Shown here: positions 1,658 to 5,733 of the stretch, piece after piece
How the letters are laid out: each line of letters starts with the position of its first letter
How positions within the stretch are numbered: the first letter of the stretch is position 1
Position numbers and translations under genes: made by a program
The notes under the pieces: generated by a model
The model's database searches: none
The model's input: only the letters and a program-made list of their open reading frames with translations
What the model was told of the DNA's origin: nothing
Origin: a virus
Taxonomy: Duplodnaviria > Heunggongvirae > Uroviricota > Caudoviricetes
Virus record (IMG/VR): IMGVR_UViG_648276652_000020
Length of the DNA stretch: 14,210 nucleotides
Strand: one strand, 5' to 3'

Positions 1658-4129
1658 TTAAGAATCAGCCTGACTCGGGATAAGTTTTTGCCAGATAACT
1701 GAAACGTATTTTGCCTGGTAACGGGCGTCATCAAGTGCATTATGGCGCTCACCTTCGAATGGAATAGCCGTTCTGGCATCGAAGTCTATGGCTTTCCCCA
1801 GCTCAACGATTGTGCGTACATCGCGATCGTTGTAGTAACGCCACGGGCAGGGGATCCCCTGCCGTTCGTATGAACGGCGCAAAATCGTGTTGTCGAAGTT
1901 GGCTCCATTTCCCCAAACCTGAACAAAAAATTCACCGGAGTTTTCGTCGATAAATTCCCGCAATTGTAATAGTGCATCATCTAACGGGATTTCATCGGTC
2001 ATAATGGCAGATTGCGCTTCGCGTGATTGCTTAAGCCACCATTTAATGGTGTCCCGATCAATGACTCCGCCAGCAGTTTCCAGATCGATAGTCTTACTAA
2101 ATTCCGGTCCCATATCTCCGGTTTGCGGATCGAAAAATATTGCACCTATTGAGATGATCGGGGCATCAGGATTTTTTCCCATGGTTTCAAGGTCGATCAT
2201 TAGATGGTCACACGTCCTGCTGGTGGATGTGATAACGTGATGACCGTTCACCGTAATTAAGGGATCTGCCGTCTCGCCAGTTTCACTATCGCTGGCGTGG
2301 TCCTGAGCGCTGCCAGCATTCCCCTTGTGTGGATGTTCAGCGCCTTCCATTTTCTCCGAATCGTCTTCCTGAACTTCAACCTGGTTCTTGTCATCGAATG
2401 TTTCCTGGTATGTTGCGTCGCCCATCACCGCACCACAATCATGGCAGTTGCCGCCACCGCTCTGACCGCAGGCGGTGCAGATCTTTTTCGGTTCCTGTTG
2501 CACTACTGGTTCAGGTTGTTTCGTTTCTGGCTCGTTTTGTTGCGTATTTGGGCTGTTTTGTTCCGCTTTCTGATCGTTCTGTTCCGTTTCTTGCTGGTTC
2601 TGGTTCACAGAATCGCGGGTTTCAATCCCCTTTACCCATTCCGGATCATTCGGATCGCTAATCCCTGCAACAAATTCACCGCGTGATACTGCAAGCAGTT
2701 CATCGGTGTCAGGCTGGCTGATATTGGCTGCCTGCATAATTTTGTTTACTTCGTCAGCGGTAACTTTTACCGGCCCTGGTTGTGCGGTCGTGTCAGATGC
2801 ACCAGTATTTTGTTGTGAACCTGAGTATGTACCGTTTTTGCGGGCGAAATATTCTTCTTTCGTGATTTCAGTAGCCCCGGCAGCCAGTGCCTTATCCAGA
2901 CCAGAAAGTTTGTTTGCGCGACCGTATTTTTCGCCATCCTTGTCGGTGAAGAGGAAGTAGAACGGCCCCTCACGCTCTACAGATGGTTCGACTTCCACTT
3001 TGCATTCGGTTTTTTCGTTGTCCGGAATTGCCGTTTCCACTGCATCAGTTTCTGGTACTGGCGACGAGAGAGTATCAGTTGCGCTCTGATTTCTTCCTTC
3101 ATCTTCAAACACGCCCTTTGTAGTCAGGTATTCAGTAATGTATTTGTTCAGTGCCACAGGGTCTTTGTGAATGTCGATCGGACGTTCACGGACAAGGCCA
3201 AAAATAGTCTGGCGGTCGTAGCGAAGGGCATCAGGCTGTTTGCGCATTGATGCCGAGATACGCTTCCAGTCTTCGCGGTCGTTGTCGATAACTTCATTTT
3301 TTGCCCAGCGATGGATGCTGCCGTCAATGTTTCCGGCATCCACATCACCAGGCCAGAGAGCGTAGGCCAGTTCGTCATCCAGTGTTTTCCATGTCTGCTT
3401 GTATTCGCGATGAGTGGCAGCAATGACCGGGCTGATTTTTCCTGTTGAATTGTCAGTGTACTGTTGATTGGCTCTGGCGCGGGCGAGATCAACAACAGAC
3501 GTGTATTTTCCGGTTTCCTTGCGTTCACCTTCGCGACGTTTTTTCCAGATGCGCATCTCTGCCTGAATTTCGGGCCATTTAGCACCAGGAATACATTTAT
3601 GCTTAACCCACCCAATGGCGTGCAACTTAAGCTCCGGATACATGGCGTTAACTTCTGGCATTTTCATCAACGCTTCAACGATATGTCCGTCGAATGTTGC
3701 CATGTCTTCCTGCAACAATTCCTGTGCGCTAATAACCATATCAACGGTGATGTTTTCACATGTGTCGAACTTAACCAGGACCGCGTTCTGTACTTCAGGG
3801 GACAGCTTGTCAAAATTGACGTTCATCGGATCGGATTCTGGTTCGACCGGAATAAAGGAAGCGGATTCCTCATCCCAGCAGTTTTCCTGCATATATTCGG
3901 TATCCCAGGAGTCGATGGCAGGGCGGGGCATGCCGGGTTTATCCTCGCAAACAAGAAATTTATAAGCGCAGTCCTGAGCAGCCGGATATTGCTCCAGGAA
4001 TTGCCAGGTAAATTTGGCTCGGGCGCGGCGTTCGTCGCCGGCTTCAATGGCAGTGGCTACAGCGACTGCACCTTCTTCCTTTATTGCCTGTTCGTCCGGA
4101 ATGGCGGCGCAAATAAAGACTTTACTCAT
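1658..4129 (-). CDS. Prophage exonuclease, 823 aa, with C-terminal DEDDh (DnaQ-like) 3'-5' exonuclease domain (the kind often annotated exodeoxyribonuclease VIII-like)
   Basis: C-terminal domain shows the three DEDDh motifs: Exo I MIDLETMG, Exo II VWGNGANFDNTIL, Exo III ERHNALDDARYQ. The middle is an acidic/Q-rich low-complexity linker with a Cys cluster CTACGQSGGGNCHDCG. Start codon at 4127-4129 has GAGG 10 nt upstream. Confidence 0.85.
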   Translation of the reverse strand: MSKVFICAAIPDEQAIKEEGAVAVATAIEAGDERRARAKFTWQFLEQYPAAQDCAYKFLVCEDKPGMPRPAIDSWDTEYMQENCWDEESASFIPVEPESDPMNVNFDKLSPEVQNAVLVKFDTCENITVDMVISAQELLQEDMATFDGHIVEALMKMPEVNAMYPELKLHAIGWVKHKCIPGAKWPEIQAEMRIWKKRREGERKETGKYTSVVDLARARANQQYTDNSTGKISPVIAATHREYKQTWKTLDDELAYALWPGDVDAGNIDGSIHRWAKNEVIDNDREDWKRISASMRKQPDALRYDRQTIFGLVRERPIDIHKDPVALNKYITEYLTTKGVFEDEGRNQSATDTLSSPVPETDAVETAIPDNEKTECKVEVEPSVEREGPFYFLFTDKDGEKYGRANKLSGLDKALAAGATEITKEEYFARKNGTYSGSQQNTGASDTTAQPGPVKVTADEVNKIMQAANISQPDTDELLAVSRGEFVAGISDPNDPEWVKGIETRDSVNQNQQETEQNDQKAEQNSPNTQQNEPETKQPEPVVQQEPKKICTACGQSGGGNCHDCGAVMGDATYQETFDDKNQVEVQEDDSEKMEGAEHPHKGNAGSAQDHASDSETGETADPLITVNGHHVITSTSRTCDHLMIDLETMGKNPDAPIISIGAIFFDPQTGDMGPEFSKTIDLETAGGVIDRDTIKWWLKQSREAQSAIMTDEIPLDDALLQLREFIDENSGEFFVQVWGNGANFDNTILRRSYERQGIPCPWRYYNDRDVRTIVELGKAIDFDARTAIPFEGERHNALDDARYQAKYVSVIWQKLIPSQADS

Positions 4130-4209: not shown

Positions 4210-4413
4210 TTACGGTGCTGTTTTAAGTCCTGCCGGGATTTCGTTATTGTCCATGCGAATAACTTTCTCAACCGGATAACAGTTGCCGGGAATTTTCTGT
4301 TCCGCTGCGGCAGCCATGCATTCTTTCATTGAGTCATGTATACCAATAACAAGATCAACTGGCTCGCCCGTATTAAGAAAAACCGTCAGAACGAGTGCAA
4401 ATGTTGTATTCAT
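4210..4413 (-). CDS. Hypothetical small protein (67 aa from the internal Met; ORF extends to 4467)
   Basis: Start at 4413 has AGGA 8 nt upstream and forms an ATGA start/stop overlap with the upstream ORF (plus 4410-4413). N-terminus is hydrophobic (MNTTFALVLTVFL). No family recognised. Confidence 0.5.
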   Translation of the reverse strand: MNTTFALVLTVFLNTGEPVDLVIGIHDSMKECMAAAAEQKIPGNCYPVEKVIRMDNNEIPAGLKTAP

Positions 4414-4598
4414 TGCCAGTATCCTTTTTGCATCAGACGTAAACGGGCCAGCATTGATACAATGCATATTTGATTTAATAGCTCCCGTTCGTGTTTTCTC
4501 TTATTAATGGCATCTTCAGTAAATACAGGGTTACTGATTCTGACACCAATTTCAAAACAACCTTCAGACGTATTAACGTTTGGTAATAACGTTTCCAT
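4410..4598 (-). CDS. Hypothetical small protein (63 aa; a longer GTG-initiated version would reach 4694)
   Basis: ATG at 4596-4598 preceded by GAGGA at 7-nt spacing. Stop overlaps the start of the next gene (ATGA), suggesting translational coupling. No family recognised. Confidence 0.45.
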   Translation of the reverse strand: METLLPNVNTSEGCFEIGVRISNPVFTEDAINKRKHERELLNQICIVSMLARLRLMQKGYWQ

Positions 4599-4615
4599 TA
4601 TCGCATCCTCAACAA

Positions 4616-4777
4616 TGAATTTTGTGATGCGGTGCCTGGTGCCTCCAGGTGACGTTAACCAGTTAATAATTAACGCCGGATACAGAGAACCCACCCATAA
4701 GAACCAATACGGAAGTCAACTGGCCTTTTTAACTGTTCCGCGTGCGCTGAGCCGCATTCACCGCATCACAAAATTCA
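4616..4777. repeat. Perfect 19-bp inverted repeat (tgaattttgtgatgcggtg at 4616-4634; caccgcatcacaaaattca at 4759-4777) separated by 124 bp
   Basis: Read directly from the sequence; arms are exact reverse complements. The 3' arm on the minus-strand transcript ends about 3 nt before the SD of the 4598 gene. The spacer contains further small palindromes (cctgg-tgcct-ccagg; gttaac; ttaataattaa). Confidence 0.8.
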
Positions 4778-4778
4778 C

Positions 4779-4827
4779 TTTAAAAAGGGCGGGTATCACA
4801 AGGGAAAACAAAAAACGGATACCCGCC
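4779..4827 (-). terminator. Candidate intrinsic terminator-like hairpin on the minus strand (10-bp GC-rich stem, 20-nt loop, then CUUUUUAAAG)
   Basis: Stem ggcgggtatc (4788-4797) pairs with gatacccgcc (4818-4827). On the minus strand the stem is followed by a T5 run (rc of 4779-4787). The loop is unusually long, so efficiency is uncertain. Confidence 0.3.
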
Positions 4828-5174
4828 AAAAGGTAATCAACATGGGTTGTTGCAGCGGGGTTGTCACTTAAGCGTATGGTCAACCTGACAACCCGGTGCC
4901 ACTAATGGGGTAAGAATAACCCCGCCATACTTACCGCCGCGCCATTTCGAGGATTGCCACAACCGGAAGCGCACAGACGAAGATGTCAGTGGTACACAAC
5001 AAAGGGAGGAATGACTTCGCCGTGCGCTTTCGCGTTATGCCCTGACTTTTCAGGGATATATCCTTTCAGTAAACTGTTTGTGCCGGATTCTTATCCGTGT
5101 CCGGCGCACGACCACGCGCTGTCACGTGTGGTCTCCATTCTCAACCAGTAACCTCAATGGAGGATAAAATTAAA

Positions 5175-5474
5175 ATGGTCAGCAAACTAAATCAGACTCG
5201 CTGGAAGATTCATTATGAAACAGCGCGTTTAAATTATATTCTTGAATGTTTTGGGGATAACCTTGCTGCTGAGGAAGGCTATCCAAACCATGTCGATGGT
5301 TTCGAAGCGATATATCTTTATCTATCCCGTAAACATGGATGGACTATTTCACAGTGTCGTTTAATGCCACTGGATGATATTCGCCTTGCTCTTTCGTTAG
5401 AGCTATCAGGGTGGCGACTCCCTGATGATGCAAAGATTGACGACCATCATTCTCACGATGATATAAGTTGTTAA
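5175..5474 (+). CDS. Hypothetical protein (~99 aa) encoded opposite to the surrounding leftward operon
   Basis: ATG at 5175 preceded by GGAGGA (5159-5164). Translation has balanced composition (MVSKLNQTRWKIHYETARLNYILECFGDNLAAEEGYPNHVDGFEAIYLYLSRKHGW...). Its 3' end overlaps the convergent minus-strand ORF by 131 bp, so one of the two may be mis-called. Confidence 0.45.
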   Translation: MVSKLNQTRWKIHYETARLNYILECFGDNLAAEEGYPNHVDGFEAIYLYLSRKHGWTISQCRLMPLDDIRLALSLELSGWRLPDDAKIDDHHSHDDISC

Positions 5475-5733
5475 GTTCCAGTAGTTTGGCTTTTGCAATG
5501 ACCTCTACAGATTTCCAGAATTTGTGGGGGTCTGTACTCTCTTCCTGTTCGTCAGGAATGTTATTGTCCTCAACAGAAACAGAATACAGTCCGGTAAACG
5601 CATCGCGCACATTACGAGCCATATTATCAATGTCTTTTTTCGTTTCAGCTTCTAATGCAACTTCGTTCAGACGTTGACGAAGTGTATGTGCTGCAATTTC
5701 TTGGATTTCTTTTGGTAACTCTTTAAATTCCAT
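5344..5733 (-). CDS. Hypothetical protein (129 aa from Met at 5733; ORF extends to 5745)
   Basis: GAGG SD 6 nt upstream of the ATG at 5731-5733. The upstream gene's TGA stop overlaps an in-frame ATG (plus 5743-5747). N-terminal two-thirds is charged and helical-looking (MEFKELPKEIQEIAAHTLRQRLNEVALEAETKKDIDNMARNV...). Confidence 0.55.
   Translation of the reverse strand: MEFKELPKEIQEIAAHTLRQRLNEVALEAETKKDIDNMARNVRDAFTGLYSVSVEDNNIPDEQEESTDPHKFWKSVEVIAKAKLLELNNLYHRENDGRQSLHHQGVATLIALTKEQGEYHPVALNDTVK

Follow-up and report, generated by a model that had tools for sequence, protein, structure and literature searches.

A dicBF-type early-leftward prophage operon with a putative DicF/KilS-class small RNA between two RNase III-type helices

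Background

The small RNA (sRNA) DicF of Escherichia coli K-12 belongs to the Qin prophage, where it lies in the locus ydfABC-dicF-dicB-ydfD. According to two papers that cite Faubladier 1990 (PMC9438474 and PMC5069750), the 53-nt DicF ends at an intrinsic terminator, and RNase III, when it processes dicBF RNA of full length, creates an alternative 3' end and a DicF of 72 nt (53 + 19 nt). A 190-nt DicF species requires RNase III for its 5' end, the 53-nt form needs RNase E, a dependence known for K-12 DicF only, and there is no internal promoter (Ragunathan and Vanderpool, PMC10448788). The 5' seed of DicF pairs with xylR and pykA, and its 3' region pairs with ftsZ (ACUCCG opposite CGGAGAG). 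A second sRNA, KilS (b4833), comes from the 5' untranslated region of kilR in the K-12 Rac prophage; it has been verified by northern blot, is associated with Hfq and was recovered by RIL-seq. Accumulation as a discrete Hfq-associated RNA has been shown for both DicF and KilS. Here we compare with these two loci the positions 4599-5174 of a 14,210-nucleotide stretch of viral DNA (IMG/VR record IMGVR_UViG_648276652_000020), the whole of which is called the window. A first-pass annotation, made from the letters alone, had described this segment as poor in open reading frames (ORFs) and rich in RNA structure, with a long inverted repeat in front of a gene starting at 4598.

RNase III sites are also found in the early mRNAs of other phages, such as those of the lambda N leader and the T7 R sites, and at lambda N the cleavage alters access to the downstream ribosome binding site.

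Results and Discussion

Identity of the locus

Judged by its alignment, 4599-5174 is the homologue of the intergenic region ydfC-dicF-dicB of K-12 Qin. Over 4560-5200 the minus strand aligns collinearly with K-12 Qin and phage Tritos at a mean column identity of 88% (alignment A1), with near-invariance on both sides of dicF, and the DicF core alone is replaced. Unless marked (+), all the features described below lie on this minus strand. The gene at 4598 is dicB (4410-4598; 62 aa and a stop), which encodes a cell-division inhibitor: it matches the Pfam model PF05358 (DicB) over its full length with 130.8 bits, and it carries this name in the 99.9% identical RefSeq record NZ_CP047277.1. Going along the minus strand, the gene order is a DUF1391 (ydfA-like) gene, a phrog_1363 gene, the untranslated segment, dicB and a DUF1482 (ydfD-like) gene, the order from ydfA-like gene through dicB to ydfD-like gene being that of K-12 Qin. 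The Pfam matches and the alignment with K-12 therefore specify the leftward operon, in which the first pass had placed the segment, as one of the dicBF type and early.

The untranslated segment extends from the dicB start (4598) to the stop (5344) of the 129-aa phrog_1363 gene (5344-5733), and 4599-5174 is the greater part of its ~745 nt (4599-5343). We consider that the segment holds RNA-level machinery, on the minus strand, of a dicBF-type early-leftward prophage operon. Its core is two RNase III-type helices, here called U and D, placed around a putative sRNA in the slot of DicF, which would be processed as in K-12. To this explanation as a whole we assign a probability of about 0.8. Taken together the feature belongs to known biology, a dicF/RNase III processing region of 1990 vintage; the sRNA allele in it is new.

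With K-12 Qin the window also shares the upstream helix, the precursor stem-loop, the terminator base GGCGG...CCGCC C-U5, the spacer domain and the long closing helix directly before the Shine-Dalgarno (SD) sequence of dicB. The immunity region differs, with racR/ydaS/ydaT (Rac-like) in the window-type prophage and dicA/dicC in K-12 Qin. These immunity genes were found in E. coli N18-04097, where a 99.9% identical stretch, annotated alike, lies within a lambdoid prophage that also carries an exonuclease gene and an integrase gene adjoining yccA.

The two long helices

The perfect 19-bp inverted repeat reported by the first pass is indeed present: its arms (4616-4634 and 4759-4777) are 19 nt long and 100% complementary, with 124 nt between them. 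When 4599-5174 was shuffled 1000 times with its dinucleotides preserved, the longest perfect repeat of this kind in a shuffle had between 7 and 14 bp. Homologues were gathered from E. coli genomes and phages, from one genome per species (probed with the conserved hairpin TCACCNGGAGGCACCNGGCAC) and from viral contigs, and 15 of them, from Escherichia, Shigella, Pseudescherichia, Scandinavium and Klebsiella, were aligned (alignment A4) and folded with RNAalifold. This lengthens the repeat to a 21-bp helix D, which closes a multi-hairpin domain; its 5' strand (4759-4779) holds the arm 4759-4777 and its 3' strand (4614-4634; columns 166-187 of A4) holds the arm 4616-4634. Double compensatory changes occur at 9 of the 21 pairs and 99% of the cells are paired. 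The covariation observed for the whole A4 structure was reached by none of 500 shuffles, and in controls with slid partners the pairing fell to 32-45%. The arms of Klebsiella sp. I138 (CAGGCUUUGCAAUACGGUG / CACCGCAUUGCAAAGCCUG) are for the most part unlike those of E. coli in sequence yet still pair, and those of Pseudescherichia and Scandinavium show switches from A-U to G-C and from C-G to U-A. Helix D is a selected RNA structure: it covaries across homologues and its arms have changed while remaining paired. The repeat is kept in the homologues, with compensatory differences between the arms, where its loss or scrambling had been named in advance as counter-evidence.

Folding gives the same picture, as the first pass had proposed to check. 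The RNA 4905-4585 has a folding energy of -119 kcal/mol (z = -4.87 relative to shuffles); its minimum free energy (MFE) structure and its centroid structure both contain the long repeat together with the terminator hairpin and the stem upstream. Helix D, with 21 pairs of which 19 form a perfect Watson-Crick run, has the two turns (~20 bp or more) of an RNase III site. The run is perfect in the window, whereas the K-12 Qin counterpart has two wobble pairs.

RNase III processing had been one of several options listed for the repeat, and it is the one that the comparison favours: the K-12 homologue has a documented RNase III role, and the end of the 72-nt DicF, 19 nt past the annotated DicF end, corresponds to position 2954 of the K-12 locus and to position 4768 of the window (A1), inside the 5' arm of helix D. 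If the 53-nt form counts the U tract, this end shifts to ~4763, and it falls within the 5' strand of helix D either way; the predicted cut is at ~4768 (+/- up to ~5 nt). RNase III usually cuts with a 2-nt stagger. A staggered cut in helix D would start the dicB mRNA near 4623, with a leader of ~25 nt.

Helix U spans 4959-5038 (5017-5038 paired with 4959-4980), with ~20 bp and a hypervariable apical loop. Among 11 distinct homologues RNAalifold finds ~20 pairs, 3 of them with double changes; with two small irregularities, the helix has about the two turns of an RNase III substrate. Counting 137 nt upstream from DicF in K-12 leads to 4969 of the window, in the 3' strand of helix U, and a cut is predicted near there. 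On this evidence helix U is the homologue of the RNase III site to which the 190-nt DicF precursor owes its 5' end. The sRNA is bracketed by two RNase III-type helices, and by analogy with K-12 we infer that RNase III cleaves this allele too.

The arrangement resembles the lambda N leader and the T7 R sites in having a helix of about two turns within a polycistronic early transcript, where cleavage parts functional units. The sequences are however unrelated, and what helix D closes is no simple hairpin but a branched domain of 124 nt. Retroregulation of the lambda-sib type, another option of the first pass, is a poor fit, since the fragment upstream would be shielded by the terminator hairpin.

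The sRNA in the DicF slot

Between the two helices lies the GC-rich hairpin followed by U5 that had been noticed before (4782-4827). Its stem (4818-4827/4788-4797) is perfect, with 10 bp and 7 G-C pairs, and is followed, after a U-rich 20-nt loop, by C and U5 (4782-4786). A GC-rich stem and a U tract are the marks of an intrinsic terminator; the loop is longer than typical, and a simple terminator scan did not flag the full hairpin (4788-4827), because the scanner limits loops to 8 nt. Upstream of the stem is an AU-rich single-stranded 5' tail, AUGUUGAUUACCUUUU (4828-4845), in place of the UUUCUGGUGACGUUU seed of DicF. The 5' end of K-12 DicF aligns to 4832, and an RNase E-type 5' end is presumed, by analogy, within this tail. 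The sRNA core as a whole (~4787-4845) is unlike DicF, with conserved flanks; what is shared is the terminator base GGCGG...CCGCC C-U5 and a few U (alignments A1-A3).

The location is that of DicF, between the operon leader and dicB, with an end at an intrinsic terminator and an RNase III helix after it. DicF and KilS form a class that is defined by position and has no formal model, and the window sRNA has its architecture: a ~15-nt single-stranded tail, a hairpin clamped by GGCGG...CCGCC, a U tail and, downstream, an inverted-repeat spacer and the gene of a division inhibitor. All the cassette variants that were folded (15/15, window included) show the unpaired ~15-nt tail, the clamped hairpin and the U tail. 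On the minus strand of 4830-5174 no promoter-like site was seen, which fits processing from the operon transcript. The suggestion of a small non-coding RNA thus finds its place in the hairpin with U5, which occupies the slot of the verified sRNAs DicF (Qin) and KilS (Rac). We classify the window sRNA, from its sequence and position, as a rare and undescribed member of the DicF/KilS class and not as DicF; in the literature on DicF-like RNAs and DicF variants we found no description of this allele series.

The resemblance to KilS concerns the slot, the terminator base, the U-rich loop and the repeat-closed spacer before a cell-division inhibitor gene. The two differ in that KilS has the 5' tail GCUGUGUGUAGUCC and a loop and upper stem unlike those of the window, its downstream gene is kilR instead of dicB, and the helix of its locus is interrupted by a bulged nucleotide and contains a wobble pair where helix D is perfect. 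KilS may also have its own promoter; none was seen for the window sRNA in the stretch scanned.

The slot, flanked by GACAACCCCGC and UUUUAAAGUGAAUUUUGUG, is very variable. At 119 loci of viral contigs (IMG/VR) we counted 41 distinct sRNA cassettes, all with the features of the DicF/KilS class named above. About 80 of these loci carry the DicF type, ~20 the KilS type, ~6 a Shigella type, 4 class A (that of the window) and 2-3 class B, and there are mosaics in which a KilS-type tail is joined to a DicF-type loop. Matches to the DicF type occur in 4010 of 5426 complete E. coli genomes, to the KilS type in 1696 and to the window type in 156; many of the identical window-type copies belong to O121:H19 Shiga toxin-producing E. 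coli (STEC). In PP818812.1 ('Actinobacillus phage vB_Apl-pPE4'), a phage that despite its name resembles a lambdoid phage of the E. coli type, positions ~700-900 hold a class A cassette and the first part of the 5' arm of the repeat as a tandem duplicate upstream of kil, and a 'hypothetical protein' is called across the sRNA. The RefSeq records shown for complete E. coli genomes leave even canonical dicF and kilS unannotated, which means that these annotations systematically understate the sRNAs that prophages carry. Since canonical dicF is unannotated in most genomes, the lack of a RefSeq non-coding RNA annotation is uninformative.

The sRNA loop (4800-4819) and positions 4483-4502 of the same transcript, around codons 32-38 of dicB, are 75% complementary (15/20, with a 7-bp core), a match that may be due to chance in AU-rich sequence.

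Proposed mechanism and effect on dicB

The leftward transcript, starting from a repressor-controlled promoter, would be cut by RNase III in helix U (4959-4980/5017-5038) to give a ~190-nt precursor. An RNase E-type cut in the AU-rich tail (~4830-4845), together with intrinsic termination at 4782-4827, would then release an sRNA of ~50-60 nt with the DicF/KilS architecture (single-stranded tail, GGCGG...CCGCC-clamped hairpin, U tail). Transcripts that read through would fold the repeat into the 21-bp helix D, closing an STnc100-like domain of several hairpins, and an RNase III cut in helix D would both give an alternative sRNA 3' end ~19 nt longer and part the sRNA from a dicB mRNA with a ~25-nt leader.

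The same cut may also affect translation. The SD sequence of dicB, GAGGA (4606-4610), is separated by 7 nt from the ATG downstream and by 3-5 nt from helix D, which lies 5' of it. The distance of about 3 nt from the repeat given by the first pass holds if the two extra pairs of helix D are counted, and becomes 5 nt when measured from the arm end at 4616. Partition-function folding gives this SD a probability of being unpaired of 0.00-0.6 in the unprocessed read-through RNA (0.00-0.15 when the sRNA tail or more is included) and of 0.8 after a cut in helix D; at three other dicB-type loci the value for unprocessed RNA is 0.16-0.21. Cleavage in helix D could in this way free the SD and raise dicB translation, a prediction of the folding models that we offer as a lead only.

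Several results weigh against this explanation. The 72-nt end was placed by arithmetic (53 + 19 nt), with an uncertainty of up to ~5 nt. The predicted unmasking of the SD is absent at the kilR locus of K-12 Rac and is confined to dicB-type loci, and the AUG of dicB is paired in every folding model. The seed motifs of DicF, which are the ACUCCG anti-SD loop facing ftsZ and the 5' seed (CUGGUGAC, CUGGUGACGUUU), are absent from the aligned window sequence. Moreover, the Rfam DicF model (RF00039, gathering threshold 48 bits) has no match in 4400-5400 even at E<=10, with K-12 Qin scoring 76.7 bits and phage Tritos 72.5 bits as controls, and two class B variants staying below the threshold with 39.4 and 34.1 bits. 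Given these missing motifs and the missing match, the functions of DicF cannot be transferred to the window sRNA. We also evaluated pairing with the translation-initiation region of ftsZ, using full-length RNAduplex and scans of 16-nt windows against shuffles, a test without power because it does not separate DicF itself: genuine DicF gave a z of about -1 (full-length RNAduplex), and 49% of shuffles were as good or better (16-nt windows).

The same losses feed the main live rival, in which the hairpin with U5 serves only as a terminator or attenuator within the operon, keeping read-through into the toxic dicB low, and the 'sRNA' is a decayed DicF with no function in trans, helix D still being an RNase III site. 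Beside the two lost seed motifs and the lack of an Rfam DicF match, it would account for the rarity of the allele in the genome counts given above and for the loops of the sub-variants, which differ mainly in the length of the U run, more like slippage than like the conservation of a seed. Yet the Hfq-type architecture is present in every variant, most changes in the stem are wobble or compensatory (GGCGGGUAUC/GAUACCCGCC versus GGCGGCAUCAG/CUGAUGUCCGCC), and the 5' tail is identical across the E. coli classes A, A' and B. In addition, KilS is as unlike DicF and is nevertheless a northern-verified sRNA found by RIL-seq, and one phage carries the cassette in tandem duplicate. On balance we judge a terminator with a decayed DicF unlikely.

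Returning to the sRNA in a DicF-type slot, a non-DicF allele would act in trans on targets other than those of DicF. A more ambitious version of this explanation would make the slot a modular, recombining cassette whose tails and loops are swapped independently, the window allele a functional Hfq-type sRNA with a regulon unlike that of DicF, and the downstream element a member of the STnc100 family whose closing helix, lengthened from ~9 to ~21 bp, is an RNase III switch coupling formation of the sRNA 3' end to unmasking of the dicB ribosome binding site. Taken jointly, these three statements are a tentative proposal, possible but not one on which we would rely.

The spacer domain and its relation to STnc100

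The interior of the repeat (4635-4758), as resolved by RNAalifold on the 15 homologues and by pair counts, contains a hairpin CCUGG-AGGCA-CCAGG (4635-4649), a second hairpin of 11 bp (4651-4677), a variable centre that 3 pairs close (~4678-4739) and a further hairpin (4740-4755). The three hairpins are conserved, the centre is variable and the inner hairpins covary (A4).

The covariance-model search proposed for the segment had a mixed outcome. At the gathering thresholds no Rfam family matches anywhere in the window; at E<=10 the matches to snR75 and to HCV CRE are due to chance, and the only credible one is STnc100 (RF02076), a prophage-associated sRNA of the Gammaproteobacteria, at 4621-4775, with 33.5 bits and E 2.3e-5, under its gathering threshold of 47 bits. 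All the homologous spacers score 33-39 bits with this model, the Pseudescherichia homologue reaches the gathering score with 47.8 bits, and canonical STnc100 copies found by the motif of the one-genome-per-species survey score 48-107 bits. With STnc100 the spacer shares a GGUGAAU... 5' element, a CCNGG-AGGCA-CCNGG hairpin and a closing helix. It differs in that its closing helix has 21 bp, it has no terminator of its own and it stands as a 5' leader in an early-left operon, whereas canonical STnc100 occurs in late regions, close to Q, stx or tRNA arrays, and most of its copies sampled have their own downstream terminator. The closing helix has a median of 9 bp in canonical STnc100 against 20-26 bp in the early-operon subfamily. 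We read the spacer, from its sequence and predicted structure, as a divergent relative of STnc100 with a lengthened helix and not as a formal member of the family.

This likeness raises a second alternative, compatible with the dicBF-type explanation, in which the domain within the repeat (~4635-4758) is itself a stable STnc100-family sRNA, excised by RNase III and with its own function in trans. The scores just given and the conserved, covarying inner hairpins speak for it, as do literature reports in which canonical STnc100 was detected at the RNA level in Salmonella and E. coli. Against it stand the window score below threshold and the long closing helix without a terminator, where most canonical copies combine their own terminator with a short helix; besides, a function is not established even for canonical STnc100. 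We find this alternative rather improbable, more so than the terminator with a decayed DicF.

Some observations concern the distribution of these elements. In the survey of one genome per species, more than 100 loci across the Enterobacterales have canonical STnc100 recognisable by the motif TCACCGGGAGGCACCCGGCAC, with copies often repeated and interleaved with tRNA genes and closing helices of ~9 bp. The idea that all STnc100 elements are RNase III cassettes was ruled out, as canonical closing helices have 6-10 bp. In Pseudescherichia, Scandinavium and Klebsiella sp. I138 the long-helix spacer directly follows a coding gene with no DicF-like terminator in front, and in Pseudescherichia, Scandinavium and Klebsiella it precedes differing small genes (dicB, kil and others). 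As the spacer is found without the terminator, the sRNA cassette and the processing spacer are separable modules. A Shigella flexneri locus (3121-3424) has a repeat-closed spacer followed, within ~100 nt, by Rfam matches to isrK (61.5 bits) and to C4 antisense RNA (75.7 bits), which implies that the same leader module precedes a different RNA-based system.

Antitermination and coding potential

Another option of the first pass was an antitermination RNA acting in cis (nut- or put-like), by which polymerase would pass the terminator and reach dicB. Such a function would suit an early-leftward operon with an internal terminator. Nevertheless helix D lies downstream of the terminator to be overridden, no antitermination family of Rfam matches even at E<=10, no boxA or boxB is present (an observation of the first pass itself), and the homologous element of K-12 has a documented RNase III role, all of which makes antitermination highly improbable.

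The region is poor in ORFs, as had been stated: the frames 4507-4836 (+), 4954-5151 (+) and 4758-4883 have no PHROG match, and homologues differ by indels of 1, 5 and 14 nt, which disrupt any frame in the region. The dicB frame is open upstream to a GTG at 4694, the translation of 4599-4694 matches phrog_24763 (E 1.3e-19), and RefSeq calls a 94-aa 'DicB' in strain M8; phrog_24763 probably consists of ORFs miscalled over a conserved RNA. That small proteins are encoded here, such as DicB extended to the GTG or the 109-aa product of 4507-4836 (+), was rejected on the PHROG search and the comparison of frames across loci and is the least probable of the alternatives, given that the canonical 62-aa DicB covers the entire Pfam model and has its own SD, that kil-type, Pseudescherichia and Klebsiella loci have the element in other frames or with stops, that variation is compensatory between helix strands and not at third codon positions, and that the remaining ORFs are those without family matches and with broken frames.

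Other features of the segment

Between helix U and the sRNA stand two further structures. Directly upstream of the sRNA, within the precursor, a stem-loop of 12 pairs, GGGGUUGUCA...UGACAACCCC (4857-4894), forms in the MFE fold and is conserved, with changes that are mostly one-sided and wobble-compatible; it includes the gggttgtca/tgacaaccc stem seen by the first pass (4858-4866/4886-4894). The second is a small variable hairpin, GGGG-UUAUUCUUA-CCCC (4907-4923), which reads GAGG/CCUC among homologues. Beyond helix U, the hairpin CCCUGA-AAAG-UCAGGG (5040-5055) is weakly conserved and partly kept in K-12, with CAGAC in place of CAGGG; it had been reported before, one base off from its actual position (5040-5045/5050-5055).

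On the opposite strand, a 99-aa ORF at 5175-5474 (+), antisense to the leftward operon, has a strong GGAGGA Shine-Dalgarno sequence and an overlap with the 3' end of the phrog_1363 gene. It has no match in Pfam or PHROG. In this region related prophages have annotated short ORFs on the opposite strand, and sieB is located there in Rac.

Conclusions

Nothing about the element itself calls for new biology. The allele found here escapes the Rfam DicF model, and prophages that carry it seem to have no sRNA even though the slot holds a different one; such prophages are common in O121:H19 STEC. The mosaics of tails and loops in this slot are a compact natural system for target change in horizontally acquired sRNAs. 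Finally, the spacer between dicF and dicB ties STnc100, which is functionally uncharacterised, to a documented RNase III processing event, suggesting a role in cis for at least one branch of this family.

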